62,020 bases of DNA from Bacillales bacterium. GTDB lineage: Bacteria > Bacillota_I > Bacilli_A > RFN20 > CAG-826. Positions within the stretch are counted from its first letter, which is position 1. Each line of letters begins with the position of its first letter. A program made the translations under genes and the position numbers. Below, one piece after another: positions 2,671 to 27,907 of the stretch. Under the pieces are notes generated by a model. The model was not told the origin of the DNA, searched no databases, and saw only the letters and a list, made by a program, of their open reading frames with translations. The stretch is taken from positions 1 to 62,020 of the forward strand of contig JAQYER010000036.1 of the NCBI GenBank assembly GCA_028723545.1. Reading direction: 5' to 3'.

Positions 2671-3888
2671 CTAATAATCAAGTTTAAACGCAGTTAAAAA
2701 TATACGATATGTTTTTAAATATGTCATCGCAGAAATCGAACCATATTGAGAAGAAGTAAACGCTACACCGATAATTCCTTCTCTATACATGTGTTGATAT
2801 TCATCAGTAACTAATCCAGTATTGTGATTTCTTGGATATGAAGATAATTCTGGGCCAATTGAATTAATATAATTCCATTGTTCAGTTCGATTATTATCAA
2901 AGAAAATATCAAACGGATTATCATAACTAGATGCATCAACATAATATACATCAATATGATCCGCTATAAAATTTGGATATTCGCCATCACTTCCATAACC
3001 TCCACGAGGTTTCGCCATAATAAATTTCTTATTTGATTCATCGTAGCAAAATTCAGCGTTGACTATTCTTTTTGTGCCATATAAATAGCCACCATCAGTG
3101 AATAATGTTGATTCCCTAATTAATTTATAGTCATTAATATTTGAGAAATCATATTCTCTAACATTCATAAATGAGCCAGTTGGACATCCAACTGTTGTAA
3201 ACAATAAAACTCTTCCTTTTTTATCAACACTCATTAAGCAAGCTTGTCCAGTTCCCCAGTTCTTATTCGTGCAATTAAAGTCTTTATAAGGCACAATCGG
3301 ATTAATTGGAGTAACTCCATCCAATTTGTAATCATTACATTTAATCCACGGTCCTTCAGGTGATTTTGAAACGGCGATACCTGTTTCATTTAAAGTGCAA
3401 TCCAAAGGAACACAACCAAGATACGCCATTAAATAATTATATTTTTCGTTATTATATTCAAATTCCCCTTTAATAACAGTTGGGTCGCATGTATGTGTTT
3501 GATCCCATGTGTCTTCACTAGGAGAAATAACTAATTGTTCTTTTGAATAATATAATTGATTGTTTTTAATTTCACCGCTTCGATAGCCGATATAATCAAC
3601 TACACTACCCCAGTCTTTATTTGTGCAATAATAAACATATTCTTTATTATTTTCAATGAAGATTGATGGGCAATAATTATAAAAATAATCTTCTCCATCA
3701 TCGCCGACAGTTTCTTCTTCACTATGTTTGAAAAGTAATTTTACTTCTCCTTCATTAGGTAAAAAATTATTCATAATATCCCCATATTCTCCTAAGTATA
3801 ACGAAGTAGATGGTGTTGTGGTTGTAGAAGTTGAATTACATCCACAAATAATTAATGGAAATAATAATATTAAAATATTTTTATTCAT
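2671..3888 (-). CDS. lipoprotein, beta-propeller glycoside-hydrolase-like (paralog 1 of 3)
   Basis: Lipobox ICGC. Closely similar to the 5460-6746 product (shared FYNYCPSIFIE, YYCTNKD, DYIGYR, CDP(T/S)VIKGEF, YLMAYLGCVP.DCTLNETGIAVSKSPEGPWIKC). I prefer the start at ATG 3886-3888 (MNKNILILL...), which overlaps the rbsK stop as ATGAATAA, over the ORF-track start at 3921. Confidence 0.75.
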   Translation of the reverse strand: MNKNILILLFPLIICGCNSTSTTTTPSTSLYLGEYGDIMNNFLPNEGEVKLLFKHSEEETVGDDGEDYFYNYCPSIFIENNKEYVYYCTNKDWGSVVDYIGYRSGEIKNNQLYYSKEQLVISPSEDTWDQTHTCDPTVIKGEFEYNNEKYNYLMAYLGCVPLDCTLNETGIAVSKSPEGPWIKCNDYKLDGVTPINPIVPYKDFNCTNKNWGTGQACLMSVDKKGRVLLFTTVGCPTGSFMNVREYDFSNINDYKLIRESTLFTDGGYLYGTKRIVNAEFCYDESNKKFIMAKPRGGYGSDGEYPNFIADHIDVYYVDASSYDNPFDIFFDNNRTEQWNYINSIGPELSSYPRNHNTGLVTDEYQHMYREGIIGVAFTSSQYGSISAMTYLKTYRIFLTAFKLDY

Positions 3889-4762
3889 ATACTTCTTCGC
3901 CATTTGGAATCGAAATAACACTACCTTTCCTTGAAACAGTAATAGAAGATGCTTTGCTTGCGATATCCATTGATTCTAATATTGAATAAGAAGCTGCTAA
4001 AGAAGAAACAAAATAACCAACATATGTATCTCCAGCCGCAACTGTGTCAATCGCTTCCACTTTATAACATGGAACTTCAAATCTCTCATTTTTATTTACA
4101 AATAACGATCCTTTGGTCCCTAATGTAACTAATACGTTTTTAATGCCTTTGTTAATTAAATACTCAATTCCTTTATTGATGTCGCTTGTATTCGAATATT
4201 TCATTAATTCGACTTCGTTTGGAATGAAATAAGTTATATATTTAAAATATTTTTCATCAAGTTCTCGATATGGTGCAGGATTATAGACGATGATTTTATT
4301 TAATTCGTGAGCTTTTTCAAAAATGAATTCGTTTGTAATTGACGGTATTTCGTTTTGCAAAACAATATAATCAGCATTTTTGATTAATTCAATATCAATA
4401 TCTTTAGGAAGCAATTCTCCATTCGCACCAGAAATAATGACAATTTCATTTTCTCCTTTGTCTGATACTGTAATTGTCGCGTTTCCTGTTTCAGTATTTT
4501 CTTTAATCAACAAATGAGAAATAACACCATAACTATTAAGAACTTCTTGAATTTGCTTTCCATCAATATCATTACCAACCGCACCGATCATATGACAATT
4601 GACTTTTTTTGATTTGGCAACCGCTACTGCTTGATTTTCCCCTTTTCCACCAGGTTGAATATAACGAGATTTGCCATAAATTGTTTCTCCTTGCAAAGGA
4701 AAATCATTAACATAGACCGTATAATCCATATTTAGTGAACCAATTATTAATACATTTTTCAT
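3881..4762 (-). CDS. rbsK: ribokinase (PfkB family)
   Basis: 293 aa with GGKGENQAVA and DTVAAGDTY(V)G motifs and ribokinase-like overall order. ATGA overlap with the upstream gene. Confidence 0.8.
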   Translation of the reverse strand: MKNVLIIGSLNMDYTVYVNDFPLQGETIYGKSRYIQPGGKGENQAVAVAKSKKVNCHMIGAVGNDIDGKQIQEVLNSYGVISHLLIKENTETGNATITVSDKGENEIVIISGANGELLPKDIDIELIKNADYIVLQNEIPSITNEFIFEKAHELNKIIVYNPAPYRELDEKYFKYITYFIPNEVELMKYSNTSDINKGIEYLINKGIKNVLVTLGTKGSLFVNKNERFEVPCYKVEAIDTVAAGDTYVGYFVSSLAASYSILESMDIASKASSITVSRKGSVISIPNGEEVYE

Positions 4763-5460
4763 TTTTCTTCATCCTCCTTCACGACAGGTAAAAATAAATT
4801 TTCTGGTAATAATGATCTTTCACATTCTTCTCGAGCAATCGTTGTGAATGTTTTTTTATTAATTGCTTGAAGAATGTATATAAAAAACGTAAATGAAACA
4901 AACGGGATTAAAAAAGGAATCAAATATAAAACAATTACAAAACTAATAAAAATTACTAAATTAAGAAAAGTTAATAATTTCTTTCTTAATGTTATAACTG
5001 CCGCTTTTTTAATCATTACAAAGAAAGTATCGTCTTTATAATAATCATTAAACAACATTAGATTAAAATAGATAGATAAAAAGACAATGCTTATTGAAAC
5101 TAGAAACACTAATGCAAACCACCCAATCCAGTTATATGCAACGTGCTTAATATAATAAATATCAAAATAAAACAATGTTCCAACAATTAACATGATTGAA
5201 ATACACAATATTTCTAATCTCCATGAGAATGACCATTGGTTTTTTATTTCCATAAAAAATGTTTTATATACATTATCATCATTATCGGAAATGTAATTAT
5301 ATATGATTTTATGAAGCGATACTAAACTAGGAAAAAATAATACAAACAAAGATAATAATGAAACAACACAAAAAATAATATTCAACGCTATTAATTCAAA
5401 TATTCTTTTCGAATATTTATAAAACGGACTATTTAATTTTTGTTCAAATGTTTTTTTCAT
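4759..5460 (-). CDS. DUF624/YesL-like integral membrane protein
   Basis: 233 aa, about 6 TM helices, with the position typical of YesL-type proteins in sugar ABC loci. It ends with a TGA stop (4759-4761). Confidence 0.55.
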   Translation of the reverse strand: MKKTFEQKLNSPFYKYSKRIFELIALNIIFCVVSLLSLFVLFFPSLVSLHKIIYNYISDNDDNVYKTFFMEIKNQWSFSWRLEILCISIMLIVGTLFYFDIYYIKHVAYNWIGWFALVFLVSISIVFLSIYFNLMLFNDYYKDDTFFVMIKKAAVITLRKKLLTFLNLVIFISFVIVLYLIPFLIPFVSFTFFIYILQAINKKTFTTIAREECERSLLPENLFLPVVKEDEEK

Positions 5461-6746
5461 TATTGATAATATTTGCTTGGGAAATTAAACGCTGTCGCGT
5501 AAATACGATATGTTGATAAATATGACCAATTGTTTCCAGTTTCTTCATCACTGCGAGTGAAGGCAACTCCTAAATTCTTTGAAGAATCAATATGTCCATA
5601 TTCATCAGTAATTAATCCAGTATTGTGATTTCGTAAAAAACCAGTTAATGATTTGTCTATGGTTCCAATTGATTTCCATGTTTTAGTTGTATTGTTTCCT
5701 GCAAATAACACATCACCAACATTCGTGCCTTCAGTATCATCAATATAATATACATCGATCGTGTCGGCAATGAAATTTGGATTCTTTCCGTCTGTACCAA
5801 ATCGTTGACGAGGTTTGGCCATAATTATTCGGCGATTCTCAACATCGTAACCAAAATCAGCATTATTTATTACATCTATTCCAGAAGATGTGCTTTTAAC
5901 ACCAGTGGAAGTAATCTTCATTCTTTCTCTTATTAATTGATAATTATCAATATCAGAAAAATCATATTCTCTTAAATTTGTAAATGTTCCGTTGGACGCT
6001 CCAACAGTGGTAAATAACAATACCCTTCCTTTATTATCAACAGATACTAAAGAAGGTTGACCAGTTCCCCATAATCCATCACAAGAGAATTCACTATATT
6101 TGACGATTGGATTGATTTTTGTTTCTCCATCAATTTGAAAATCACATTTAATCCAAGGCCCTTCAGGACTTTTTGAAACAGCAATACCAGTTTCATTTAA
6201 TGTGCAATCAGAAGGAACACATCCAAGATAGGCCATTAAATATGAATATTGCTCTCCATGGAATTTAAATTCACCTTTGATTACACTTGGATCGCAATCA
6301 TGTCTTGAATCCCATGATCCAATTTCCCCAGGAGATAAGACAAATTTTGTTTCGCTAGAATATTCTAATTTATTATTAGTTATTTGTCCTGTTCTATAAC
6401 CAATATAATCAGTCACGTATCCTTCATCTTTGTTGGTGCAATAATATACATGTTGAACATTATCTTCGATAAAAATTGATGGACAATAATTATAAAATAG
6501 ACTTTCACCTGCAACTCCATGATCAAATAATAATCTCACTTCACCAACTTCCGGAATCAAAGAAATTTCTTTCTGAGGTTCACTACTAGAAGTAGTTGAG
6601 GTTGTTAAAGTATCGGAGGTGGTTGGTGTTGTATCTAAAGATCCTGAAGTAGTATTTGATGAATTATCAGTCGTTGACGAAAAACTAATATCACAACTAG
6701 ATATCAATAACGCTAGTCCAACTAATCCAAAATATTTTTTATTCAC
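5460..6746 (-). CDS. lipoprotein, beta-propeller glycoside-hydrolase-like (paralog 2 of 3)
   Basis: Lipobox ISSC, an S/T-rich linker, then strong similarity to the 2671-3888 product. GTG start at 6744-6746 overlaps the upstream stop (GTGAATAA). Confidence 0.75.
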   Translation of the reverse strand: MNKKYFGLVGLALLISSCDISFSSTTDNSSNTTSGSLDTTPTTSDTLTTSTTSSSEPQKEISLIPEVGEVRLLFDHGVAGESLFYNYCPSIFIEDNVQHVYYCTNKDEGYVTDYIGYRTGQITNNKLEYSSETKFVLSPGEIGSWDSRHDCDPSVIKGEFKFHGEQYSYLMAYLGCVPSDCTLNETGIAVSKSPEGPWIKCDFQIDGETKINPIVKYSEFSCDGLWGTGQPSLVSVDNKGRVLLFTTVGASNGTFTNLREYDFSDIDNYQLIRERMKITSTGVKSTSSGIDVINNADFGYDVENRRIIMAKPRQRFGTDGKNPNFIADTIDVYYIDDTEGTNVGDVLFAGNNTTKTWKSIGTIDKSLTGFLRNHNTGLITDEYGHIDSSKNLGVAFTRSDEETGNNWSYLSTYRIYATAFNFPSKYYQ

Positions 6747-7932
6747 CTAAATTAACCTCAATTGAGCATAATGATGCAGTGTAATTTGAATCCATAACAC
6801 CTTCATTGAATGTAGAATATATTACTTCAATTGAAGTTGCATCACTAGAAATATATCCATATTCATTAGTGACAATTTCTGGAGAATATAATTCATCCCA
6901 TCCTAATGATTCATCATTATTCATATCCATTGTATCAAAGCCAGTGACTTTTTTAATAGAAGTCCATTTTGCTAATGTTGAAGATAAAATATCTGAGCTC
7001 GCAATAGCGATTTCAAAAGATGAAGCACATCCAGGAATATTTAATGAAGGCGCGCCATCATTAGCTAAAATAATATCATGATTTTCATTATCTTTAATTG
7101 CTAAACCAACATTAGATAATATACCATCATCACGGCCAATTAAACCTTCACTAGGAAGTTCAGCATATCCTTCTTCAATGATGATTTCGTTTAAATTTGA
7201 AAAATCACATTGTTTAACTCTTACACCTGAGATTTGAGTTTCCCCAAAAGCATATGTAAGCATAACTTTTCCTTGTTTATCGATTGAATTTAATACTGGA
7301 GAGCCATATCCGAATGAAGCTTCAAATATTTCAGGGTTTTCTAAAATAGGAGTATTGCCGACTCTAACCCATTCTCCAAAGATATTGTTTGATACAGCTA
7401 AACCAATATGATTATTGTAATTATCACCATATTCATTGCCTTGATACGCTAATAAATATGAATAACTTTCTTGTTGATAAGAGAATGTTCCTTTAACGAT
7501 ACTTGGTTGATAAATGTAATTATCCCAACTATTTTCACTTCCTCTAAAAACAATATGTTTTTCTCCATATTCCCATTCGCCATTATTAATAACGCCTTTT
7601 CTTGCAGCAAAAACTTGTTTTCCTTTGGCTTCTTCTTGAGAGACGTAAATAACATATCTTTCGCCATTTTCATCAAAGACCGATGCATCTTTTGTATTGA
7701 AGCCTAAAGATTCTTTAAATAACAAACCAGTGCCATTAATATCTTTTTGCTCACCTTGTTCATATATTGGTAAATCATCTCCACCAGTTGATGTGCCAGT
7801 AGATGGTGAAGTTGTGTTGGTATTTGTATCAGTGTTTGTGTTTGTGTCACTAGAATTAGTATTAGAAGAATTATTACAAGACACTAATAAGAATAAAGAC
7901 AAGAATAGACAAGATAAATGTATTTTTTTCAT
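6739..7932 (-). CDS. lipoprotein, divergent beta-propeller glycoside-hydrolase-like (paralog 3 of 3)
   Basis: Lipobox LVSC and an N/T/S-rich linker. Motifs DASVFDENG, SWDN.IYQPSIVKG, YSYLLAYQG and HIGLAVSNNIFGEW occur in the same order as in the other two paralogs. Confidence 0.7.
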   Translation of the reverse strand: MKKIHLSCLFLSLFLLVSCNNSSNTNSSDTNTNTDTNTNTTSPSTGTSTGGDDLPIYEQGEQKDINGTGLLFKESLGFNTKDASVFDENGERYVIYVSQEEAKGKQVFAARKGVINNGEWEYGEKHIVFRGSENSWDNYIYQPSIVKGTFSYQQESYSYLLAYQGNEYGDNYNNHIGLAVSNNIFGEWVRVGNTPILENPEIFEASFGYGSPVLNSIDKQGKVMLTYAFGETQISGVRVKQCDFSNLNEIIIEEGYAELPSEGLIGRDDGILSNVGLAIKDNENHDIILANDGAPSLNIPGCASSFEIAIASSDILSSTLAKWTSIKKVTGFDTMDMNNDESLGWDELYSPEIVTNEYGYISSDATSIEVIYSTFNEGVMDSNYTASLCSIEVNLGE

Positions 7933-7946
7933 AAACTTATTTCTCC

Positions 7947-10493
7947 TTATAATCCCATATTTTCTTTAATTGTATTTTGGGTATTGAATGCTGAAGATTT
8001 CTTTGTTTCATTAAAATATAATCCAACATTTTTAATGAAGAATTCTAAATCTTCAAATCTAGTATTATCACTTGTTAAGAATAAATTACCTGAGAAATAA
8101 TCTAAATTAAGAATACCATCAACACCTTCAAGGCCAGCATTCCAAGCTGGAACTGAATATGATTCAAATGGGACACGAATATATCCTTTAAATCCGACAG
8201 GAATTTGTACTTGGTCAGATTTAGAATACATCATATAATCAGCGTCTTTTACAACATCATAAGCATAATACATTGCTGGATATCCAACGACACACCATCT
8301 TTCAGTTGTTGTTTTTCCAGGAATCTTTTCATCAAATTGAAGGGTAATTCCAATTTCTTTAAAAGATCTATTTTCAACATAGAAAGTAATTCCTTTTGCG
8401 TATTCTTTTCCGGTTTCTTTTTCAACATACGCTTTAGTTCTATCAGTTGTTAAACCGTGATCAAATAATCCTAAACACATATATGACCCATATTGGTGAC
8501 CAGTTTCATAAGGTCCGATATGGACAAAAACACCATCATCTTCTTTATTATATGAACATGCATTATCACCAATATCATATGTGACATATTTTTTCATTTC
8601 TGCATCTGTTCGATAATTTAAAGAATCGATAATTTTGACATCGCCAATCCATTCAGAAGGAGATGGAATAAAATATTTTACTACAGTCAAATATCCATCA
8701 TCTGCGTGATAAGTTTCTACAATATCATTTACATTGTTGCAATCAAACACGACTGTGTGAGTAAGACTTTCTTGTTCAACAGTTCCAATATCACCAAAAG
8801 TAATATTAATTGCGTAATCATAATATGTATGAACTCTAATTATTAAATTTACAACGCTTGACCAATTAAATGTTGAACCAGCTTTTTGATTTAAGAAATC
8901 TTTTTGAAGCACAATAACTCCGGTCTTTTCAATCGCGTGAATTGTATTTTCATCACCAGTTGTGTGGTTCATTGCAGTAGATTCACCATTTGAAATTAAA
9001 TAAATTGGTTTTTTAACTGCTTCTGCTTTTGATGGTAATTGCATAACATTTGAAGAGTTATCAACAAATTCAAGTTGGAAAGCACATGAGCCAGTACCAG
9101 TATAATTAATAGCAATAGCTTCGCCACTAGATAAATCTAATGGAGTTTCATAAGTTGCAGTTGCTGAAGAGAAAACACTTGAATCGCTATTTTTCTTTGC
9201 AGTAATGTTCGCTCCACCACTTATTCTTCCTTGATAATTGATAGTTGTGTAATCAAATAATGGAATTTCTAATTCCTTATATCCAGATAAAATTGAAGCA
9301 GTACATTCTCCCCATGTTTCAATTCTAGTTTCAATTTCTGATTTATATAATGAAGAGCCATCAAAAGCAATGTTATCTTTTGAAAAAATATCACCTACTG
9401 AAATATCAATTTTATCTCCTTCTAAATAAAATGCACACGCTAAAGAAGAATGATAATCAGGACCACACCAACTAGAATTTGTATCACCAATTAATGATTC
9501 ATTTGGAAGATAAATAAATCCATCAAAATTGCCAGGTAATTCAAAATAACCCCATTCATTGATTGAAGCTAGTGTTTCATTCATTCCGGCTGCATCGTAT
9601 TTATAATAATTTTTATTAGGGCCAGTCACTGCTCTATTTCCAAAACTATCAGACGCTAAGAATGATTTTAAATATGAAGAAGTTGATAAATTATTTTTAA
9701 TTCTAAAATACACTCCTCCATTTGATAAATCAGTAGATCCACCAAATTTATTTAAATATCCAGCATAACCAGTAGTGACAATTTTTGTTCCTCCTAATAA
9801 ATCTCCTTTTGGAACAAATGATTCCGCTCTAGGATTTTGAGTAATACTTTGATATTCACTATTTTGATTGATGAATACTTTTGAGAAATCTTCTTCGGTT
9901 ACTGAAGAAGTATCTAAAACCACTTTTTCATCAGTAAAAATGTCTCCGATCGCATATTTGGCATAGTAATCATAAAATCCACTGAATTCAATATATATTC
10001 TCCAAATTGAAGAAGGGTTAAAGTCAGAAGTGCCTGCTATTTTTGACATTTGAGTTGAATAATTCATGTAAATAAATCCATCAAAATTAGCTGGAAGCAT
10101 AATATAGTTACCCCAAGATCGAGGAGAACAGCCAGTTGTTTCATTTCCATTAATGTCAAAATATGTTTGCGCCACATTTGTTGTTGGTGCAATTAAAGTG
10201 CCGTTTGTGGAATTGATTTTGAATGTTAACGGAGTGTCAGTGCCAGTATAATTTTTCATTCTTAAATAAATACCGGTTCCAGAAAAGTCAGAATTGCCTT
10301 GCATATTTGCGTTAATTTCCGTAACAATTCCTGAATCAGGATCTTTTTGTTTTAAACCTTTGATTCTCGCTGAGCCATATAAATCTCCAGAAATGTCTGT
10401 GGCGTTCACTTTTGTAGCTGAGTCGACTTTATTGCCAATTGAGCCTAATAAAGTCATAATTGCGAGTAATGATAATAATTTTTTCTTTTTCAC
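7947..10493 (-). CDS. secreted 848-aa protein built from about four related beta-sandwich-like modules, function unknown
   Basis: Signal peptide (..KVNA|TD). Recurring module signature G.G(I/V)Y(L/F)R(M/I)KN ... LP(A/G)NFDGFIY. The N-terminal ~210 aa are closely paralogous to the 18299-19915 product. Confidence 0.7.
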   Translation of the reverse strand: MKKKKLLSLLAIMTLLGSIGNKVDSATKVNATDISGDLYGSARIKGLKQKDPDSGIVTEINANMQGNSDFSGTGIYLRMKNYTGTDTPLTFKINSTNGTLIAPTTNVAQTYFDINGNETTGCSPRSWGNYIMLPANFDGFIYMNYSTQMSKIAGTSDFNPSSIWRIYIEFSGFYDYYAKYAIGDIFTDEKVVLDTSSVTEEDFSKVFINQNSEYQSITQNPRAESFVPKGDLLGGTKIVTTGYAGYLNKFGGSTDLSNGGVYFRIKNNLSTSSYLKSFLASDSFGNRAVTGPNKNYYKYDAAGMNETLASINEWGYFELPGNFDGFIYLPNESLIGDTNSSWCGPDYHSSLACAFYLEGDKIDISVGDIFSKDNIAFDGSSLYKSEIETRIETWGECTASILSGYKELEIPLFDYTTINYQGRISGGANITAKKNSDSSVFSSATATYETPLDLSSGEAIAINYTGTGSCAFQLEFVDNSSNVMQLPSKAEAVKKPIYLISNGESTAMNHTTGDENTIHAIEKTGVIVLQKDFLNQKAGSTFNWSSVVNLIIRVHTYYDYAINITFGDIGTVEQESLTHTVVFDCNNVNDIVETYHADDGYLTVVKYFIPSPSEWIGDVKIIDSLNYRTDAEMKKYVTYDIGDNACSYNKEDDGVFVHIGPYETGHQYGSYMCLGLFDHGLTTDRTKAYVEKETGKEYAKGITFYVENRSFKEIGITLQFDEKIPGKTTTERWCVVGYPAMYYAYDVVKDADYMMYSKSDQVQIPVGFKGYIRVPFESYSVPAWNAGLEGVDGILNLDYFSGNLFLTSDNTRFEDLEFFIKNVGLYFNETKKSSAFNTQNTIKENMGL

Positions 10494-10511
10494 AATTTGT
10501 TGCCTCCTTTT

Positions 10512-11429
10512 TTAAATGCTAAGAACTTTTTTAAATAATGAGAAAAATTTTTCTTTATCTACAGAGATGGATACATTGATGAATTTATTTTTTTCAGAAT
10601 TGATAAAAGGCATTCCGTGATTAGAAAGATCAAAATCCAATTTAAGTTTCTCGGTTTTAATAATCGATTCATCTATTAATGATGTAACAGTTAATGGATC
10701 GTGCATGACTGGGTTTTCAAAATTGTAATGAGCAAACCACTTCATCATCGCGTTATACACTAATTTAATGGCTTTTGAATCATTGTTTCTTAATTGATTG
10801 ACTTCTTCACTAGATAATCCAGTTTGTGAAGTTACATTTAATGTAACAGCAGTAATCTTTTTCACATCAGAATCAATTACAATTTTAGCGGCATCTGGAT
10901 CACAAAAAATATTCCATTCGACAAAATTGTAATTTAATCCCGCTCCCATAAATCTAATCTCTTTTATTTTGTTAGCAATGCTTGGGTCTTTTTTTATCGC
11001 ACTGGCGATATTAGTCATTGGGCCAATCGGAATAATTGTTATTTCGTTTGGGTATTTATTAACTGATTCAACAATAAAATCAACCGCGGATTTATTTTCA
11101 ATTTGGCACTTCTCCATTGATTCATCCCATTGAGGAATCAAATATTTATTATTTTCATCTACTTTTTCTTTTTGTTTAATTTCTGGCGATATTAAATTGT
11201 CAATTGATACTTTTAATGGGTTATCAATACCAGGATAAACTTTAATATCATATCCTAAAGAATCAATTAATTGCTTTGCCATCTTCGCTCTTTTGATTGA
11301 ATTGCGAAATACTGTTGTTATCCCGAGAACATCGAATTTATGACTTTCAAGCAATAATAACAATGCAAAAGCATCATCGATATCATCACCAATATCAGTA
11401 TCAAGTATTACTTTTGGCAAATTATTCAT
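10512..11429 (-). CDS. inosine-uridine-preferring nucleoside hydrolase (IUNH) family protein, cytoplasmic
   Basis: DTDIGDDIDDAFAL (the DxDxxxDD Ca/ribose-binding signature) and a C-terminal VMHDPLTV. The start is taken at ATG 11427-11429 (MNNLPKVILDTD), which overlaps the SBP stop as ATGAATAA. The 32-codon extension in the ORF track is rejected. Confidence 0.75.
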   Translation of the reverse strand: MNNLPKVILDTDIGDDIDDAFALLLLLESHKFDVLGITTVFRNSIKRAKMAKQLIDSLGYDIKVYPGIDNPLKVSIDNLISPEIKQKEKVDENNKYLIPQWDESMEKCQIENKSAVDFIVESVNKYPNEITIIPIGPMTNIASAIKKDPSIANKIKEIRFMGAGLNYNFVEWNIFCDPDAAKIVIDSDVKKITAVTLNVTSQTGLSSEEVNQLRNNDSKAIKLVYNAMMKWFAHYNFENPVMHDPLTVTSLIDESIIKTEKLKLDFDLSNHGMPFINSEKNKFINVSISVDKEKFFSLFKKVLSI

Positions 11430-13194
11430 GAACAGCTCCTCTCCAATAAGAAAAGTCTCCATTAGGTCCTTTATATTCTGGTTCAACATAATCAGGTCTA
11501 TTTTGAGGATAACCATATTCAACATTTAACAATTGTTTGGTAGTTACATATGATTCTGAATAGAAAGTAATTACTTTGTCTAAACCTAATTTTTTAGCAT
11601 AAGTAATCGCGTTATTGTAGTCGGTTTTCCAATCATTTGAACGAATAATATCCACTAAAGCCTCAGCCCATTTTGTTTTAATCTTATTAAAGCTAGTTGT
11701 TATTGAGAAATAATCTTCTCTAGAAGTATCATGTTTTAAGAATGTTGGTTTGAAATTATATGAATATGGAGTAAGTGGTCTTTTCATATTATCAATATAA
11801 ATATCGGTCGCTTTTCTTCCGTTTAATGGTTTGTATTTATTGATATACGCTAAATTCATTAATAAAGTCATATTATATAAGCCAAGAGTGTTAATCCATG
11901 CTTGGTCTTCAGCATTTCCATTTACACCTGAAACATATCTATCTGACCATAATATTTGTGTGTGGTCTTCATTCCAGTAATAAGATTCGCCTTCAACACC
12001 AAAAGCCACTAATCTTTGTCCTTCTTCTGAATATAGATATTCAAGCAATTTAATTGCCTTATCAGGATTCTTACAATTTCTAGTAATCATAGTTAATAAA
12101 TAACCGTTTCCAGAAATATCTTGTAATATTGGTGCTTGATTATCTTTGTTTTTTAAAATTAATGGAACGTAATTTACTCCAGATGCATATGCATTGAGGA
12201 ACGCCATTTGATAATCTTGAGGAGTAACAGCTGTAACAAAACAATTTCCACGAGAAATATTTGTTCTAATTGCAGCTGATTTAGCTGAATAGTTTTCTGA
12301 TTTAATAATTCCTTCTTTATGACATTTATTTAAAAATTCAAGCATTTCTTGATAACGTTCAGTTGTGCGAATATCTAAATAATTGCCTTCTTTGTCTTCA
12401 TATGGAGCACAGAAATATTGAGCTAACCAATCAACCGAATCATTTCCTTCAGTTGTAAAAGCATCTAATTGGAAAGGAATTGCGTCATTATGTTTAGTCG
12501 CAATATATTTACATCCTTCAATAAATGATGCGGCAGAAGTCATATCATATCCTGCTGATAAAGCTTCTTTATACCAATCTTCGCGAACCATTAAGCATCC
12601 ATTTGGTTCCATTTTATCAGTGTCATTAACATATTTTGTTGAATAAGCAAAATTTGGAACGCCATAACAATACCCATCTCCTTCGGTAAAATAATTCCAA
12701 ATATCTTCTTGTTCTTTTTCTTTAAAAGATGGAGCCCATCGTTCAATTAATCCATCTAATGGATATAAATAACCTTGGTTCGCTAATTGAGAGCATTGTG
12801 TGTACCAACATTGAACAGAAATAATATCAGGCAATTTATTTCCAGAAATAAGTGTAGATAATTTTTGTCCATCATCAGTAACCGGAACAGTAAATTTGAT
12901 TTTTGCACCAGTCTTTTCTTTAATAATTTGGCTAACGCGGTCAGATCCATATGAGTTCCATGCAAAAGTTGAATCATTGACATACCATTCAAGATCCCAT
13001 TCATCAACTGTGCCATCTTCATTTTTTAAATATTCCCAAGAATCTTTATCTCCTGGAGTAAGTGGCAAATCAGGATAAATATCCTCAATATTAGTTGATG
13101 AACTAGTTGAATCAAAATAACTTAAAAGACCACAACTAGATAGCATAGTTGAAGATAAAAAAGCTAATAAAATTCTTTTAAATGTTTTATTCAT
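11422..13194 (-). CDS. ABC transporter extracellular solute-binding lipoprotein (large LplA/YtcQ-like family-1 SBP)
   Basis: 590 aa, lipobox LSSC, directly upstream of two LplB/LplC-type permeases. Confidence 0.8.
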   Translation of the reverse strand: MNKTFKRILLAFLSSTMLSSCGLLSYFDSTSSSTNIEDIYPDLPLTPGDKDSWEYLKNEDGTVDEWDLEWYVNDSTFAWNSYGSDRVSQIIKEKTGAKIKFTVPVTDDGQKLSTLISGNKLPDIISVQCWYTQCSQLANQGYLYPLDGLIERWAPSFKEKEQEDIWNYFTEGDGYCYGVPNFAYSTKYVNDTDKMEPNGCLMVREDWYKEALSAGYDMTSAASFIEGCKYIATKHNDAIPFQLDAFTTEGNDSVDWLAQYFCAPYEDKEGNYLDIRTTERYQEMLEFLNKCHKEGIIKSENYSAKSAAIRTNISRGNCFVTAVTPQDYQMAFLNAYASGVNYVPLILKNKDNQAPILQDISGNGYLLTMITRNCKNPDKAIKLLEYLYSEEGQRLVAFGVEGESYYWNEDHTQILWSDRYVSGVNGNAEDQAWINTLGLYNMTLLMNLAYINKYKPLNGRKATDIYIDNMKRPLTPYSYNFKPTFLKHDTSREDYFSITTSFNKIKTKWAEALVDIIRSNDWKTDYNNAITYAKKLGLDKVITFYSESYVTTKQLLNVEYGYPQNRPDYVEPEYKGPNGDFSYWRGAVHE

Positions 13195-13206
13195 AAAAAC
13201 TCCTCT

Positions 13207-14130
13207 CTAACCCTTCAAGCTTCCAATTACAACTCCTTTTGTAAGGGTTTTTAAAATTAATGGATATATAATAAAAATTGGAATAACTGAAATAATAATT
13301 GCCGCTAAAGAGACAGTTTCTGGTGCGACTTTATTTAATAATTCAACTGGTAATGACACTCCAGGAGCAGGCATTGAAGATTCATTAATAACTTTCATTA
13401 AATAATATTGGAGAGTCCATAAATTTTCATTTGAAGTGTAAATCATAGTTTCAAAAAATGAATTCCAATGGCCTACTGCAATCCATAACGCAACCGTTGA
13501 TACGACTGGTCCACTTAGTGGAAGAAGAATGCTAAAGAAAATTCTAAATTCACTCGCTCCATCCATGACAGCGGATTCATGAATTTCTTCAGGAATTGTT
13601 TTAAAGAAATTAACAAATACGAGCATGTTGTAAACAGAAAATAAGGCCGGAATAATGTAAACCCAAAATGAATCAAATAAACCTAATACATTAATTACTA
13701 AGAAATAAGGAATAAGACCTCCACCAAAGAACATCGTAAAAATAAAGAATCGATAAATAACTGGTTTACCTATGAGATTTGGTCTTGACATCGCATAGGC
13801 AACAATCGCAGTAAAAATAACTCCAGTTATAGTTCCTAATATCGTTCTAGCGATGGTTATACCATATGCTTTCCATAAACGAATATCATTTAATACTACA
13901 TTGTAATTTTCTAATGAGAACACTCTTGGAAATAACCAAATACCTCCATTAATATAATCAGCGCCTTCAGAGAATGAACCCGCTAAAACATAGATAAGAG
14001 GATATACACTCATTAAAGAGAAAACTAAAAGTAAAGAAACATTTATCCAATCAAAAAGATGTTTCTTTTGTTTTCGACCAGTTGAACCAATCATCAGTTG
14101 GTTTTTCTTATATACTTTTTTTGTTACCAT
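13207..14130 (-). CDS. carbohydrate ABC permease (LplC/YtcP-like)
   Basis: Six-TM MalG-class permease with an EAA-loop region (ESAVMDGASEFRIFF.ILLP). ATG at 14128-14130 is preferred; an alternative GTG lies at 14145. Confidence 0.8.
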   Translation of the reverse strand: MVTKKVYKKNQLMIGSTGRKQKKHLFDWINVSLLLVFSLMSVYPLIYVLAGSFSEGADYINGGIWLFPRVFSLENYNVVLNDIRLWKAYGITIARTILGTITGVIFTAIVAYAMSRPNLIGKPVIYRFFIFTMFFGGGLIPYFLVINVLGLFDSFWVYIIPALFSVYNMLVFVNFFKTIPEEIHESAVMDGASEFRIFFSILLPLSGPVVSTVALWIAVGHWNSFFETMIYTSNENLWTLQYYLMKVINESSMPAPGVSLPVELLNKVAPETVSLAAIIISVIPIFIIYPLILKTLTKGVVIGSLKG

Positions 14131-14131
14131 A

Positions 14132-15115
14132 TTAGAAAATCCCACTTCCTGTTGTCTTTTTAGCTACCCAGTTACCAACACCTAGTAACACAATAGCGAC
14201 AACTGATTTAAAGAAACCAACTGCGGTGGTATATGAATATTGAAGATTAACAGCGCCATATTTATAAATAAAAGTATCAAGAACTTCACTTCTAGCTAAA
14301 TTAATCTGGTTTTGGAATGTCCAAATATGATCAAAACCATTATTTAATATTCCACTTACAGATAAAATGAAAAACAAGACAATTGTTGGTGCGATTGAAG
14401 GGATTGTAATATGAATAATGCGGTGCAATCTAGTTGCCCCATCCATATCAGCAGCTTCAAATAATTGAGGGTCAATTCCAGCAATCGCGGCAACATAAAT
14501 AATTGATCCCCATCCCATTCCTTTTAATAAAGAAGTAATAATAATAGTTGGCCAGAAATATTGAGATTCACCAAAATTAATTGGATCAGAAACAATATTT
14601 AGTTTTAATAAAACCGTATTAATAATTCCATCCGAATTTATTAAAGCTAAAATAATTCCTCCATAAACAATCCAAGAAAGGAAATATGGGAAATAAGTAA
14701 TAACTTGCACTGTTTTGCGGATTTTTTTCCATGGTAATTCACTTAATAAAATCGCGAACAAAATTGGAGCTGGGAAATTAATGCATAATTGAAGAATGTT
14801 TAATCCTAAAGTGTTTAGCATGACATCTTTAAAATCAGGGTCATTAAAAAATGCTTTGAAATTATCAAATCCAACCCATTCACTTTTAAAAATTGCATCA
14901 AGAATATTTAAATAACCATCTCCGCTTTTAAAAGCTAAAATTAATCCAAACATTGGAAGATAGGCAAAAATGGCAATGAAAATAACTCCAAAAGACACCA
15001 TTATTCCTAATTCAAAAGCGCTTCTAGTAAATTTTTTCTTTTCGTGTCTTCTTGCTAATGGAGAAATTTCTTCAAGAGCAGCTTCATATGGTTTTTTCTT
15101 TTTAATTGTTAACAT
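14132..15115 (-). CDS. carbohydrate ABC permease (LplB/YteP-like)
   Basis: EAA loop EAADMDGATRLHR. The AAGGAG SD sits 8 nt before ATG 15113-15115; the ORF-track start at 15124 is a GTG directly abutting the SD. Confidence 0.8.
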   Translation of the reverse strand: MLTIKKKKPYEAALEEISPLARRHEKKKFTRSAFELGIMVSFGVIFIAIFAYLPMFGLILAFKSGDGYLNILDAIFKSEWVGFDNFKAFFNDPDFKDVMLNTLGLNILQLCINFPAPILFAILLSELPWKKIRKTVQVITYFPYFLSWIVYGGIILALINSDGIINTVLLKLNIVSDPINFGESQYFWPTIIITSLLKGMGWGSIIYVAAIAGIDPQLFEAADMDGATRLHRIIHITIPSIAPTIVLFFILSVSGILNNGFDHIWTFQNQINLARSEVLDTFIYKYGAVNLQYSYTTAVGFFKSVVAIVLLGVGNWVAKKTTGSGIF

Positions 15116-16115
15116 CTGAAACACTCCTTCTTTCTACCAAAGTAGGTTCAATCAATATCGTTTTTTTAATTTTTTGATTATTGAATAATTCATTGATTAC
15201 CGAACTACATAACGAATCAATATTTTGTTTTATTGTTGTTAATCCTGGAGTAATTAGTGAAGAAAATTGATTATCATCAAATCCAACAACTGAAATGTCT
15301 TTTCCAACTACCTTGTTCATTTCAGAAGCTGATTTATATATTGAATACGCCATCAAATCATTAAAAGCAAAAATGGCAGTAATTGAATTGTCTTTCAATA
15401 TTTCTTTTGCAAGAGGGAACGCTCCATCGAAATGATAATCGCCTTCATAAACGATTGAGTCATCGAATTCGACCCCCCATTCAGATAAAGCTTTTTTATA
15501 ACCGAGTAAACGATCTTGTGAAGAAGAAATTTCTTTTGGTCCAGTAATACAAGCAATCTTTTTATGCCCTTTTTCTAACAAATATTTGGTAGCCAAATAT
15601 CCACCTTTTATATCGTCATTAACTACTATTGGAGCGTTCTCGATATCAATTTTTCTATCTAAAATAACAACAGGAACATCAATATCTTTTTCTAAAGATT
15701 TAATATCTAATAATTGATTATTTGAAAAACTAGAAGGTGGAACAACTATTAAGAAATCAATATTTTTAATAATCATGTCAGCAATGGTTTTCTTAAATAA
15801 TTCAATGTCATATCCTGAATTAGCAATAAATAATGAATAACCATTTTTAACAAATGATGATTCTAAAGATTTAATTAATCTTGCATAATAACCGTTTTCA
15901 ATATCTGGCACTAATACAGCGGCGGTATGGGTTAATTTGCTTTTTAACGCACTGGCAATATAATTTGGATGATAATGATATTTATTGCACACATCTAAAA
16001 CTCGTTGACGAGTTTCTTTTGAAACGGAGTCAGTTTTTCCATTTAAAACAAAACTAACTGCGGTAATTGATACACCACATTCTTTTGCTATATCTTTTAT
16101 CGTAATCCTTGCCAT
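15102..16115 (-). CDS. LacI-family transcriptional regulator
   Basis: N-terminal HTH MARITIKDIAKECGVSITAVSFVLNGK followed by a periplasmic-binding-fold sugar sensor domain. Confidence 0.9.
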   Translation of the reverse strand: MARITIKDIAKECGVSITAVSFVLNGKTDSVSKETRQRVLDVCNKYHYHPNYIASALKSKLTHTAAVLVPDIENGYYARLIKSLESSFVKNGYSLFIANSGYDIELFKKTIADMIIKNIDFLIVVPPSSFSNNQLLDIKSLEKDIDVPVVILDRKIDIENAPIVVNDDIKGGYLATKYLLEKGHKKIACITGPKEISSSQDRLLGYKKALSEWGVEFDDSIVYEGDYHFDGAFPLAKEILKDNSITAIFAFNDLMAYSIYKSASEMNKVVGKDISVVGFDDNQFSSLITPGLTTIKQNIDSLCSSVINELFNNQKIKKTILIEPTLVERRSVSDVNN

Positions 16116-16116
16116 A

Positions 16117-18069
16117 TTAAATTAATCTCACCTTAAAATTAATATCGGTAACTCCGATAACATTATTATCAATATTAAAATGAATTTGATCGCCAACATT
16201 CCTTTTTTCATTAGGCTCAAATATCAAAATATCTTCATTATTAACATTAACGATATAATATGTTTCATTTCCATAATCGATTATATTTTTAATTTCACCG
16301 GCAAATAATCCATCTTCGCTAATTTTTATATCGTGTGAATTAATTGAAAATTTGATTTGATGTAATTCAAATTTCTTTCCTAACAAATTATATATTTTCA
16401 CTATTGAAGAATTGTTTGGAGTAATTTCTTTACCTAATAATAAATAATTGAATACTTTAATATTTGAATTTTTAATTTTAATTTTCTTTCCACTAGAGTC
16501 TTTAAAATTATTTGACGATAATCTTTCATACATTTCTGGTTCAACTAAATTTTTATCAAGTACTGGAAGAACCATTTTATGAGGAACTAATTTTCCATCA
16601 ATTTCATTGTATTTATTCAAACAATCAATAACTAATTGTCCATTTTCATCAAATATTTTTAAAGAAGGAATTGATAATGAAAATTCAAAATAATCCCCAT
16701 CAATATATTGTTCTTGAGAATAGAATAAATATTCATCTTTGTGTTTTAATTTAAAAACCCATCTATTATTGATTTTTTCTTTATTAACTATTTTAATTTT
16801 AAAATCTGTTCCTTTAATTATTGAATCATTATTAATAGATACATAATAATTAACACCATTTAATTTATCTAATATGAATGAAGGAATACTTAATTTATGT
16901 CCTAAAATGGATAATTTATCTTTATTTAATGTTGCTCTAACAGTCATTGTTTGAGGAATTCGAGGAAGAATCGTATTTGTTGACTCTTTCAAAAATAAAT
17001 GCATTTTTGATAAATCTAGTTTTACATAAATCTTTTGTCCTAATGTAAAATTATCGTTACGTAAAGTGCGGATTGTAATTCTTGTTTTATCCACTACTGA
17101 TTCAACAATTAAGTTACATTCATTTCCTAAAGCTTCAATAACACTAATCTCGCATTCAAAAGCATTTTTATCATTTGGCTTACATAAAACAACGTGCTCT
17201 GGTCTAATTCCAACAACAACTGGTTTTTTATTGATTATATTAATAATATCGATGCGAGAAATATCATCAACTGAACACACTATTTTATTAAATGAAGAAG
17301 TAATTGAAACATCTTTTCCTTCATAATCCATCTTAGCGTCAAAAAAGTTCATTTGAGGAGTTCCAATAAATCCTGCAACAAATTCATTAACAGGATAATC
17401 ATATAAATTCATTGGTGAATCAACTTGTTGAATAACCCCAAGTTTCATAACAACAATTTTTGTTCCCATGGTCATCGCTTCAATTTGGTCATGAGTAACG
17501 TAAATAAATGTAGTGCCTAAAACATGATGTAAACGAGTGATTTCACTTCTCATTGAGCTTCGCAATTTAGCGTCCAAATTTGATAATGGCTCATCAAGTA
17601 AAAATACTTTTGGCTTTCGAACAATCGCTCTACCTAACGCCACACGTTGACGTTGGCCACCAGACATGGCTTTTGGTTTTTTATTCAATTGGTTTTCAAT
17701 ATCTAAAATACGTGACGCTTCATGGACTCTTCGATCAATTTCGTCTTTAGGAACATGTCGAATCTTTAATCCAAAGGCCATATTGTCATAAACAGTCATA
17801 TGAGGATATAAAGCATAGTTTTGGAACACCATCGCCATATCGCGGTCTTTTGGTTCTAAACTATTTGATAAAATTCCATCAATATAGAAATCACCAGCGG
17901 TAATATCTTCAAGCCCTGCAATCATTCGTAGTGTTGTCGATTTACCACATCCAGAAGGACCAACAAAAACAATGAATTCATTATCACCAATTTCTAAATT
18001 AAAATCATCGACAGCCTTTGTGCCGTTGTCATAAATCTTATAAATGTGTTTTAGTGATAAATTCGCCAT
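16117..18069 (-). CDS. MsmK/MalK-type sugar ABC ATPase with ~280-aa C-terminal extension
   Basis: Walker [10 protein letters not shown], signature LSGGQRQR, Walker B FLLDEPLS and H-loop. The regulatory TOBE region ends near aa 370, but the ORF continues to 650 aa. Confidence 0.9.
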   Translation of the reverse strand: MANLSLKHIYKIYDNGTKAVDDFNLEIGDNEFIVFVGPSGCGKSTTLRMIAGLEDITAGDFYIDGILSNSLEPKDRDMAMVFQNYALYPHMTVYDNMAFGLKIRHVPKDEIDRRVHEASRILDIENQLNKKPKAMSGGQRQRVALGRAIVRKPKVFLLDEPLSNLDAKLRSSMRSEITRLHHVLGTTFIYVTHDQIEAMTMGTKIVVMKLGVIQQVDSPMNLYDYPVNEFVAGFIGTPQMNFFDAKMDYEGKDVSITSSFNKIVCSVDDISRIDIINIINKKPVVVGIRPEHVVLCKPNDKNAFECEISVIEALGNECNLIVESVVDKTRITIRTLRNDNFTLGQKIYVKLDLSKMHLFLKESTNTILPRIPQTMTVRATLNKDKLSILGHKLSIPSFILDKLNGVNYYVSINNDSIIKGTDFKIKIVNKEKINNRWVFKLKHKDEYLFYSQEQYIDGDYFEFSLSIPSLKIFDENGQLVIDCLNKYNEIDGKLVPHKMVLPVLDKNLVEPEMYERLSSNNFKDSSGKKIKIKNSNIKVFNYLLLGKEITPNNSSIVKIYNLLGKKFELHQIKFSINSHDIKISEDGLFAGEIKNIIDYGNETYYIVNVNNEDILIFEPNEKRNVGDQIHFNIDNNVIGVTDINFKVRLI

Positions 18070-18082: not shown

Positions 18083-18100
18083 AACTAAATCGTTTTAGTT
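18083..18100. promoter_or_regulatory. LacI-type palindromic operator AACTAAATCGTTTTAGTT
   Basis: 16 of 18 positions are palindromic around a central CG. It lies between the predicted -10 box and the SD of the first gene of locus A. A near-identical site is at 20016-20037. Confidence 0.55.
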
Positions 18101-18107: not shown

Positions 18108-18135
18108 ATTATAAATAATTATTTTTGTATTTCAA
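18108..18135 (-). promoter_or_regulatory. sigma-A-type promoter of locus A (TTGAAA, 16 nt, TATAAT)
   Basis: The minus strand reads TTGAAA (complement of 18130-18135), a 16-nt spacer, then TATAAT (complement of 18108-18113). The operator starts 7 nt downstream. Confidence 0.55.
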
Positions 18136-18228: not shown

Positions 18229-18262
18229 AAAAAAATAAAGCACAGAAATTAATCCGTGCTTT
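18229..18262 (-). terminator. rho-independent terminator of the 18299-19915 gene
   Basis: Stem aaagcac(a)g/c(c)gtgcttt at 18237-18262, followed on the minus strand by ATTTTTTT. Confidence 0.6.
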
Positions 18263-18298
18263 AAATTCTTATATAAAACTAATTCGATTATTAATTAA

Positions 18299-19915: not shown

Positions 19916-20015
19916 AAAAAACCTCCAAAAATATTTTTTGATAACTTTATTTTATAAACATAAAAAATTTTTATCAAATACTAAAAAAATAAAGTATTTA
20001 TTATATAAATAAATT

Positions 20016-20083: not shown

Positions 20084-21025
20084 TTACAATTTTATTGTTT
20101 CTAAAGGTTTGTTTTCTTTAATAAATTGTTCAACTTCTTCTTTGTGATGAAGAGATGGTATTGCCCCTTTAACTTGGACAGTTAATGCCCCCATTGCATT
20201 TCCATATTTAACAGCATCTTCAATTGAACATCCTTCGCTTAATGAATACGCAAAAGCGCCAATAAAGCTATCTCCTGCCGCAACAGTGTCAATCGCATCT
20301 ACATGATATGAAGATACAATTCTTGCTCCATTTTCATCAAAAATAAACGCTCCTTTTGAGCCTAGTGTTGTGACAACATGTTTAACACCTTTATCAAATA
20401 ACGCTTTTGCGGCGATTTTTATTTGATTGATATCAGATGTATCTAAATTAGAAATAAGCGCTAATTCGGTTTCATTTGGCATTAAATAATCTAAATTTTT
20501 CAATATATAATCAGGTAATTTAATAGCAGGGGCTGGATTTAAAATAACTTTGACATTATTTTGTTTACAATATTCAATGACTTTAAATGTTGTTTCGATA
20601 TCCATTTCTAATTGACAAATCACATAATCACTATCTTTTAAAACTGGTTTAACTTTTTCAAATTGTTCATCTAAAAATTCATGATTCGCGCATGGAATAA
20701 CACAGATTCTATTTTGACCATTTTTATTGATTTGGATTTGAGCTGTTCCAGTGCAATTTTTATCAGTTACAAAAACATTTGATACATCAATATTTTCTTT
20801 TTTAAATAAATCGATAAATTTTTGACCATTCGCATCATTTCCAACCATTCCAATCATTCTAACATCGGCGTTTTGTCTTGCTAAAGCAATGCATTGATTT
20901 GCGCCTTTACCGCCTAAAAAGATTTGTAATGATTTACCCACTACTGTTTCACCTGCTTCAGGATAACGATCCATTGAAGCAACATTATCGACCATAAATG
21001 ATCCAAATACTGTTATTTTCTTCAT
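20084..21025 (-). CDS. ribokinase-family (PfkB) sugar kinase; specificity not determinable (ribose or possibly D-arabinose)
   Basis: 313 aa with GGKGANQCIALA and DTVAAGDSFIGAF motifs and clear similarity to RbsK. It is the last gene of locus B. Confidence 0.75.
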   Translation of the reverse strand: MKKITVFGSFMVDNVASMDRYPEAGETVVGKSLQIFLGGKGANQCIALARQNADVRMIGMVGNDANGQKFIDLFKKENIDVSNVFVTDKNCTGTAQIQINKNGQNRICVIPCANHEFLDEQFEKVKPVLKDSDYVICQLEMDIETTFKVIEYCKQNNVKVILNPAPAIKLPDYILKNLDYLMPNETELALISNLDTSDINQIKIAAKALFDKGVKHVVTTLGSKGAFIFDENGARIVSSYHVDAIDTVAAGDSFIGAFAYSLSEGCSIEDAVKYGNAMGALTVQVKGAIPSLHHKEEVEQFIKENKPLETIKL

Positions 21026-21076
21026 AATATAACCCTAAAATTATAATAATATGTTAGTAAATAATTTTTGTTTCAA

Positions 21077-21679: not shown

Positions 21680-21692
21680 AAGACCACCTCTT

Positions 21693-22913: not shown

Positions 22914-22944
22914 ATTTACTCCTCTACAATTTGAAAATATAAAT

Positions 22945-22968: not shown

Positions 22969-22978
22969 TAATATCATG

Positions 22979-27906: not shown

Positions 27907-27907
27907 A

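Follow-up and report, generated by a model that had tools for sequence, protein, structure and literature searches.

Contig JAQYER010000036.1 (NCBI GenBank assembly GCA_028723545.1) comes from a Bacillales bacterium (GTDB lineage Bacteria; Bacillota_I; Bacilli_A; RFN20; CAG-826), and we analysed its positions 1 to 62,020, called the window throughout. Our subject is a cluster of genes between 2671 and 18069, which we examine as a candidate operon for the use of an extracellular ribose-containing glycan or glycoconjugate. G+C makes up about 30% of the window, whose minus strand holds nearly all long open reading frames (ORFs), among them the twelve of the cluster, whose junctions range from a 23-nt overlap to an 18-nt gap. 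The tight packing described in an earlier note, made from the sequence alone, is thus borne out. In order of transcription, the genes encode an MsmK-type ATP-binding cassette (ABC) ATPase, a LacI-family repressor, two permeases, a solute-binding protein (SBP), an IUNH-family hydrolase, an 848-amino-acid (848-aa) secreted protein, lipoproteins of 397 and 428 aa, a membrane protein, a ribokinase and a 416-aa lipoprotein. The families listed in the earlier note stand, with three corrections: the 416-aa lipoprotein comes last, after the ribokinase, the membrane protein loses its DUF624 label, and the IUNH gene has another start.

The operon is predicted to form one transcription unit with its own promoter and a candidate LacI-type operator. 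Upstream of msmK, between the terminator of the preceding gene (18236-18263) and the msmK start at 18069, lies a sigma-70-like promoter on the minus strand (TTGAAA-16-TATAAT, 18108..18135), which at 11/12 is the best of the region. Between its -10 element and the ribosome-binding site of msmK we found an 18-bp palindrome centred on CG, AACTAAAACGATTTAGTT (18083..18100, no strand assigned), whose shape is typical of LacI operators and which is the only such site in the window at up to 3 mismatches. Operator-like sequences of the form TA(C/G)TAAAACG(A/T)TTTA(G/C)T also occur in the related loci L006, L041 and L032, where they stand upstream of msmK, of an SBP gene or of additional propeller genes. 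The regulator itself (15102..16115, minus strand) combines a LacI helix-turn-helix domain (Pfam LacI HTH, HTH_LacI) with a periplasmic-binding-protein-like domain (Peripla_BP_1/3), and both are found together with the CG-centred palindrome at the promoter.

Import appears to rely on an ABC transporter of the CUT1 type. Its ATPase (16117..18069, minus strand) is a long form of MsmK, 650 aa in length, with Pfam ABC_tran, OB_MalK and TOBE_2 matches over residues 21-359. Beyond the usual OB/TOBE domain it carries a C-terminal extension of about 290 aa (window 16117-17000), which shows a weak TOBE_2 signal and is kept in the orthologues (632-652 aa long). The two permeases, both BPD_transp_1 proteins on the minus strand, are encoded at 14132..15124 and 13207..14145. 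The former is 55-86% identical to its counterparts in orthologous loci, and the latter is syntenic in 44 of the 50 loci compared below. The SBP (11422..13194, minus strand) is a 590-aa lipoprotein with the lipobox MLSSC and SBP_bac_1/8 matches, and its best matches among solved structures, 5gub/5gx8/5xs8 (E about 3e-10) and AlgQ2 (1e-4), bind large oligosaccharide ligands. A polytopic membrane protein of 233 aa (4759..5460, minus strand) could be an accessory subunit of this importer. It has no Pfam DUF624 match even at E <= 5 and resembles NCBIfam MusI_fam instead (E 4.6e-11), at 42.9 bits, under the cutoff of 160. In the related locus L003 (12420-14000), the PfkB gene is 526 aa long and a separate gene for the membrane protein was not detected in that operon, an arrangement consistent with fusion of the MusI-like protein to the kinase.

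The cytoplasmic hydrolase with a nucleoside-hydrolase fold, proposed in the earlier note, is confirmed as an IUNH-family N-ribohydrolase-fold enzyme (10512..11429, minus strand) by its match to PF01156, 203.3 bits against a threshold of 34.2. The listed ORF (10512-11525) reaches about 100 nt into the SBP gene; because the orthologues are 301-310 aa long, the likely start is Met33, at 11429. No signal peptide was found in this protein. The segments DTDIGDDIDD, EWN and HDPL are invariant across 51 orthologues, the first of them being the N-terminal acidic IUNH motif DxDxxxDD extended by two residues. In characterised IUNH enzymes, these segments bind Ca2+ and the 2',3' and 5'-hydroxyls of the ribosyl group and supply the leaving-group His. 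The HGxDG aglycone loop of solved IUNH enzymes aligns to a longer, unrelated loop, and the protein falls under every NCBIfam equivalog cutoff tried (UriH, RihA, RihB, RihC), the best being UriH at 140 bits against 450. Since the Ca2+ and ribose motifs are kept, we read the enzyme as a predicted ribosyl hydrolase by its sugar site. In Paracholeplasma vituli (L049, 4138-5032) the IUNH gene is split into two ORFs of 158 and 122 aa, which could reflect a frameshift, a pseudogene or an assembly error.

Downstream, at 3881..4762 on the minus strand, lies a ribokinase-like PfkB kinase of 293 aa. It narrowly misses the equivalog cutoff of NCBIfam TIGR02152 (285.2 bits, cutoff 299.65), which the kinase of the adjoining locus passes with 343.5 bits; the two kinases of the window (3881-4762 and 20084-21025) are 35% identical to each other. 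The top solved-structure matches of the operon kinase are all ribokinases (1vm7 at 1e-52), and in an alignment to 1gqt it keeps the counterparts of N14, D16, K43, N46, E143 and D255 of Escherichia coli RbsK.

The extracellular side of the operon is made of three paralogous lipoproteins and the 848-aa protein. The lipoproteins are encoded on the minus strand at 6739..7932 (397 aa), 5460..6746 (428 aa) and 2671..3921 (a 416-aa ORF with the lipobox IICGC, whose true start is probably Met7 or Met12). The 416- and 428-aa proteins are 57% identical, and the 397-aa protein, a divergent type, is about 30% identical to either. None of these extracellular proteins carried a family signature that the earlier note could name, and indeed Pfam gives no match at E <= 0.01 for the 848-aa protein or the three lipoproteins; for the latter, NCBIfam and a single-sequence search of solved structures also returned nothing significant. 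In fact, the fold of the lipoproteins becomes visible only with profiles and a structure model. The model of the 428-aa protein (pLDDT 83.5) starts with a disordered Ser/Thr-rich tether, followed by an all-beta five-bladed propeller. A Foldseek search with this model, one of the checks proposed in the earlier note, matched glycoside hydrolase (GH) families GH62 (4n2z, E 3e-9), GH117, GH43, GH130 and GH32, all at 10-15% identity and with a probability of 1.0 for GH62, GH117, GH43 and GH130. Thus, the 428-aa protein has the five-bladed fold and belongs to an uncharacterised GH43/GH117-like family. The fold is shared with GH117 (3,6-anhydro-alpha-L-galactosidase), GH62 and GH43 at Foldseek E values of 3e-9 to 1e-7.

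How wide is this propeller family? An exhaustive profile search collected 782 clusters at 50% identity. Among 50 sampled distant members, 15 match Pfam GH43 (best E 7e-19), out of register in both members whose profile coordinates were shown, and UniRef labels some family members 'Glycosyl hydrolase family 43'. Sampled members are fused to Ricin lectins, dockerins, carbohydrate-binding modules (CBMs), GDSL esterases and type IX secretion system (T9SS) tails, partners typical of carbohydrate-active enzymes. Because of these fusion domains and the GH43 matches in 15 of 50 members, we regard the family as carbohydrate-active. The earlier note had foreseen that profile searches might place the lipoproteins in a well-characterised GH43 subfamily, and this did not happen: the 428- and 416-aa proteins have no GH43 (PF04616) match, and the 397-aa protein reaches 14.9 bits (E 0.017) against a gathering threshold of 32.2. 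A relationship to the neighbouring DUF4185/GH183 proteins was also considered and rejected (hhalign probability 1.8%). The evidence supports placing the lipoproteins in the furanosidase-rich GH43/62/117 fold class, outside any characterised subfamily.

The propellers differ from GH117, GH62 and GH43 in the residues of the putative active site, which we located by sequence alignment to GH117. When the family profile is aligned to GH117, blades 1-2 run in register (E about 1e-9) and Cys88 falls at the position of the catalytic Asp in the blade-1 DPS motif; across the family Cys or Ala takes the place of this Asp, and the blade-3 Asp position corresponds to Q230. Another polar set is conserved instead: D113, D146, H149, D152, Q230, N295, D297, D301, R372, H374, N375 and D381. 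The 416-aa propeller keeps every conserved pocket residue but one (D297E). The 397-aa propeller and its orthologues carry D113Q, H149Y, D152Q, Q230S, D297G, R372E and H374Y, and because most of the conserved polar residues are lost, this type may be non-catalytic, acting in binding only, or differently specialised. It is nevertheless retained in nearly every locus despite these losses.

The 848-aa secreted protein (7947..10493, minus strand) appears to be built of about five beta-sandwich domains of the CBM/LG type. Its AlphaFold model (pLDDT 87) is all-beta, and Foldseek matched it only to LNS/LG domains, CBM11 (TM-score 0.55 on the target) and the Bacteroides protein SGBP-B; a catalytic domain was looked for and none was found, since Foldseek on the model shows no catalytic fold. 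We found no more than 31 homologues of it. Judged from the model, this is a putative surface glycan-binding protein, and such a beta-sandwich chain fits the capture of a polymer. Just upstream of the operon lies the gene for a 538-aa surface protein (18299..19915, minus strand) that has a signal peptide and is anchored by a C-terminal transmembrane segment; over its N-terminal 400 aa, the 848-aa protein shares 46% identity with it. This gene is transcribed separately, from its own promoter (19949-19977) to a strong hairpin-plus-T-run terminator (18236-18263). In the loci L017-L020, homologues of the 538-aa protein are located within the operon.

To see how far this arrangement extends, we compared gene neighbourhoods, as the earlier note had also proposed, using one genome per species. 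The scan returned 79 loci, and we counted gene presence in the 50 informative loci with at least 7 kb upstream. The operon proved to be widespread in Bacilli and Clostridia: the 79 loci come from metagenome-assembled genomes (MAGs) of Bacilli (labelled Mollicutes, Erysipelotrichaceae, Acholeplasmataceae, Anaeroplasmataceae and Izemoplasma) and Clostridia (Christensenellaceae, Gallimonas and Catabacter), obtained from human, ruminant, chicken and rabbit guts and also from sediments, and they include Paracholeplasma vituli and Candidatus Izemoplasma sp. B36. The SBP and both permeases are present in 44 of the 50 informative loci, the IUNH enzyme in 43, LacI in 37, at least three propellers in 36, an 848-aa-type protein in 28 and a ribokinase in 18 (17 of the rbsK293 type and one of the pfkB313 type). 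Core synteny is maintained down to 30-40% identity across the two classes, and clustering of the ORFs over the 79 related loci revealed no further conserved gene family, the rest being shadow ORFs. Because the core of LacI, permeases, SBP, IUNH and propellers recurs in this way (about 43 of the 50), the locus is not the orphan it had been taken for. Nor is the IUNH protein unrelated to the operon, as the earlier note had allowed for: it is an integral part of it, the most faithful enzymatic partner of the locus rather than a bystander. Three contigs (L014, L023 and L039) binned as Bacteroidaceae, Parasutterella excrementihominis and Alistipes onderdonkii have the operon in its complete Firmicutes form, with ABC importer and lipoproteins; these contigs are probably mis-binned.

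We also inspected nine other contexts, in which the encoded propeller-family proteins are more distantly related (about 30-36% identity). The ribose module recurs in four of them. In Paenibacillus gansuensis, the order LacI-RbsD-SBP-permease-permease-GH42-like-IUNH is divergent from a gene for a propeller fused to Ricin. Two T9SS-tailed propellers, on Bacteroidota-type contigs, are flanked by ribokinase, secreted nucleoside-hydrolase-like proteins, an RbsU-type transporter and a transaldolase, and the fourth context (L089) reads LacI-SBP-permeases-PfkB-IUNH. The module was not seen in the other five, one of which sits on a contig too short to judge and another of which has its gene at a contig end. 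We therefore reject a universal linkage of the family to IUNH, which is not in view in Amycolatopsis, Cohnella, Mariniflexile and a copy on a conjugative element: the link is recurrent rather than universal. The latter copy (L084, 1867-3432) encodes a 521-aa member among TrbL, YodL, DUF3852, PadR and RelB/ParE, with no sugar genes nearby.

The earlier note held that no dedicated utilisation system is established for such a substrate, a statement contradicted by the ribose utilisation system (Rus) of Bacteroides thetaiotaomicron. Rus (BT2802-BT2809), with about 70 variants in Bacteroidetes, comprises two ribokinases, SusC/D, a surface lipoprotein GH, an IUNH, a permease and a regulator, which in many variants is of the LacI type (Glowacki et al., bioRxiv 10.1101/574913). 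Its surface GH belongs to an unassigned family and has weak, Ca2+-dependent p-nitrophenyl (pNP)-ribofuranosidase activity, and its IUNH is weak and broad in specificity and also cleaves pNP-ribose (10.1101/574913). The authors concluded that the architecture suits the release of ribose from something beyond nucleosides, the complex substrate or polymer being unidentified (10.1101/574913). Rus and the operon are alike in having ribokinase, IUNH, a surface 'GH' lipoprotein without an assigned family, an importer and a regulator, and T9SS-tailed members of the propeller family occur in Rus-like gene sets. The two differ in how they take up their substrate: Rus uses SusC/SusD and the inner-membrane permease RusT, whereas the operon has a CUT1 ABC importer with its 590-aa lipoprotein SBP in their place, as expected for a Gram-positive or Mollicutes-like host. 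They also differ in that RusNH is periplasmic and the IUNH of the operon cytoplasmic, and in that the operon, unlike Rus, adds three propeller lipoproteins and a multi-CBM-like protein. When a profile was built from three T9SS-tailed members, its best 120 matches included no protein of B. thetaiotaomicron, and cluster look-ups returned only names of the 'hypothetical protein' kind; the sequence of RusGH (BT2807, 539 aa) itself was not compared. In the literature, searches for a ribofuranosidase and searches for a Gram-positive example of this gene combination turned up nothing beyond the Rus preprint. By analogy, Bacteroides Rus seems to have a Gram-positive counterpart in the operon.

Actinobacterial clusters offer a second comparison. 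Corynebacterium glutamicum has the uriR-rbsK2-uriT-uriH cluster, which includes a LacI-type repressor. In Bifidobacterium longum, the ribose-induced cluster B8809_1363-1366 encodes a ribokinase, a transporter and a RihC-like protein, but a LacI-type repressor is not reported for it (PMC13011590). These clusters share with the operon a ribokinase, a nucleoside hydrolase and a transporter, so that only the cytoplasmic half is common. UriH is the best NCBIfam match of our IUNH enzyme, but at 140 rather than 450 bits and without the HGxDG loop. In the actinobacterial clusters, moreover, one secondary transporter takes up free nucleosides, and extracellular enzymes and binding proteins are lacking.

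Two further sugar loci occupy the window, both on the minus strand. The locus at 20084-33502 encodes MsmK, an AraC regulator, an SBP, two permeases, a cytoplasmic GH172/DUF2961 enzyme, a surface-anchored 828-aa Big_2 protein, one lipoprotein and one cytoplasmic protein of the DUF4185/GH183 type, a SIS-only, KdsD/KpsF-like arabinose-5-phosphate isomerase and a ribokinase equivalog. It looks like a locus of the D-arabinan type, in which a route from the kinase through arabinose 5-phosphate to ribulose 5-phosphate is possible. A literature search found no description of this route, and in the polysaccharide utilisation locus of Dysgonomonas gadei a predicted fucose isomerase is instead the most abundant carbohydrate-active protein (PMC10115798). 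The locus at 33700-51864, for fructans, has three GH32 enzymes, a fructokinase-like PfkB protein, LacI and an ABC importer. One of its GH32 enzymes (1164 aa) is anchored at the C-terminus and also bears a 3-keto-disaccharide-hydrolase-like domain. Two surface proteins of 640 and 827 aa, which have no assigned family, are mutually paralogous. Both loci share the layout of our operon, namely MsmK, regulator, SBP, permeases, surface-anchored enzymes and sugar kinase. The operon differs from them in that its cytoplasmic enzyme is an IUNH and not a glycoside hydrolase, and in that its surface enzymes fall outside defined families.

To explain these observations we propose that the operon is repressed by LacI and uses its ABC importer to exploit a glycan or glycoconjugate that contains ribose and is found outside the cell. 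It would be the Gram-positive analogue of Rus in Bacteroidetes. We give this reading about an even chance (roughly 0.5). From the folds, motifs and gene associations described above, we infer the following steps. The secreted 848-aa protein, with its multiple beta-sandwiches, would catch the polymer at the cell surface, where the lipid-anchored propellers would cleave or trim it. A conserved polar pocket is common to the 428- and 416-aa proteins, and the 397-aa protein may act in binding only. The resulting fragment would be imported by the lipoprotein SBP, the two permeases and the long MsmK, perhaps with the help of the MusI-like membrane protein. In the cytoplasm, the Ca2+-type IUNH would split the beta-ribofuranosyl bond to release D-ribose, which the ribokinase would convert to ribose 5-phosphate for the pentose-phosphate pathway. 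LacI would sit on the promoter-overlapping palindrome and be released by an inducer, either the imported fragment or ribose. D-ribose is the most likely cytoplasmic end product, and it is well supported by association because distant members of the propeller family again adjoin IUNH, ribokinase or RbsD. The extracellular substrate is most likely a polymer or conjugate rather than a free nucleoside. Thus, the ribofuranose-glycan reading of the earlier note keeps its core, ribose by association (IUNH, the RbsK residues, the propeller fold and the recurrences), and loses the claims that the locus is an orphan and that no comparable system is established.

Several points weigh against this proposal. 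To our knowledge, no ribose-containing polymer is common in guts, soils and sediments. We know of IUNH enzymes acting on N-ribosides and activated O-ribosides, and of none acting on unactivated O-glycosides. The operon has no cytoplasmic hydrolase for a second sugar, and ribokinase is missing in many of the Clostridia loci. In three distant contexts without the ribose module, the propeller gene lies in a conjugative element, in a protease neighbourhood or beside a two-component system and an ABC importer. At the column of the blade-1 catalytic Asp, 50 family members have Cys 27 times and Ala 18 times, and Asp never; because this canonical residue is missing, hydrolase activity of the propellers is not assured. 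In a stronger version of our proposal, the propellers would be the first of a new glycoside-hydrolase family. Its active site would be non-canonical, with Cys or Ala in place of the general-base Asp of the clan and with a new constellation of Asp, His and Asn residues conserved. They would depolymerise a widespread but so far unrecognised ribofuranose-containing polymer or conjugate, and the IUNH would be a cytoplasmic ribofuranosidase on the imported fragment. We hold this version doubtful. If it is true, the propeller family would be the missing extracellular enzyme class of ribose scavenging in Firmicutes and Bacteroidetes.

The same cytoplasmic enzymes would also serve the scavenging of nucleosides or RNA-derived ribosides, in which an imported ribonucleoside or small riboside conjugate (a modified or glycosylated nucleoside or a cofactor fragment) is split by the IUNH into base and ribose for the ribokinase, and in which the propellers and the 848-aa protein bind or pre-process the precursor without being classical glycosidases. 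The absence of a canonical general base in the propellers suits this alternative, as does the IUNH itself, which shares the HDP leaving-group and Ca motif with true nucleoside hydrolases and matches UriH best in NCBIfam. The hosts fit as well, being MAGs of reduced-genome, Mollicutes-like Bacilli and Izemoplasma. Such hosts are likely auxotrophs for bases and nucleosides. Finally, ribokinase-transporter-nucleoside hydrolase clusters of just this make-up exist in actinobacteria, and that of B. longum, with its RihC-like protein, is induced by ribose (PMC13011590). We still judge nucleoside scavenging unlikely. The importer is of the CUT1 sugar type, with an SBP akin to oligosaccharide binders, rather than a nucleoside system of the Bmp/Nup type; conserved alongside it are three propellers and a CBM-like protein of five domains; the IUNH lacks the HGxDG loop and stays under every equivalog cutoff; and the Paenibacillus version adds a cytoplasmic GH42-like enzyme.

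Could the substrate be a furanoside other than ribose? A polymer of microbial cell walls that contains, for instance, D-arabinofuranose or galactofuranose might be shared with the adjacent locus at 20084-33502, the kinase acting on the released pentose and the IUNH having a side role. That locus has GH172, two DUF4185/GH183 proteins, a ribokinase equivalog and an arabinose-5-phosphate-isomerase-like SIS protein; the kinases of both loci are 35% identical, and the 848-aa protein shares its 400-aa N-terminal region with the 538-aa protein encoded between the loci. However, the adjacency of the two loci was not seen in the other loci inspected, where the conserved partner of the propellers is IUNH and not GH172 or GH183, and within the window the candidate LacI operator is found only at the promoter of our operon. 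IUNH chemistry needs the cis-2,3-diol of the ribo configuration for Ca2+ chelation, and RbsD accompanies the Paenibacillus version. We judge a shared non-ribose polymer improbable. More remote still is an ordinary system for plant pentosans (arabinan or xylan), with divergent GH43 enzymes and with IUNH and ribokinase as unrelated passengers. The Pfam GH43 matches of 15 of 50 distant members (best E 7e-19), the UniRef names 'Glycosyl hydrolase family 43' and the presence of GH43 and GH62 arabinofuranosidases among the Foldseek matches all point that way. Against it, no protein in the window has a GH43 match above threshold (best E 0.017, 14.9 against 32.2 bits), the catalytic Asp of the propellers is replaced, araA/B/D and xylA/B are absent from the locus, and the linkage to IUNH is conserved over classes and phyla. 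We consider a pentosan system very unlikely.

In the gut, Rus-type loci make Bacteroides fitter in a diet-dependent way, and yet the complex substrate for which they evolved has never been found. The operon described here would be a second, independent architecture with the same enzymatic logic, present in many uncultured Bacilli and Clostridia of the gut and rumen. Culturable carriers exist: Paracholeplasma vituli, Paenibacillus gansuensis and Candidatus Izemoplasma sp. B36. A defined SBP and a propeller family with no characterised member are both open to expression and screening. We envision that the identity of the SBP ligand would address the nature of the ribose-containing nutrient, and that the propellers may represent a new CAZy family with unusual catalytic residues.

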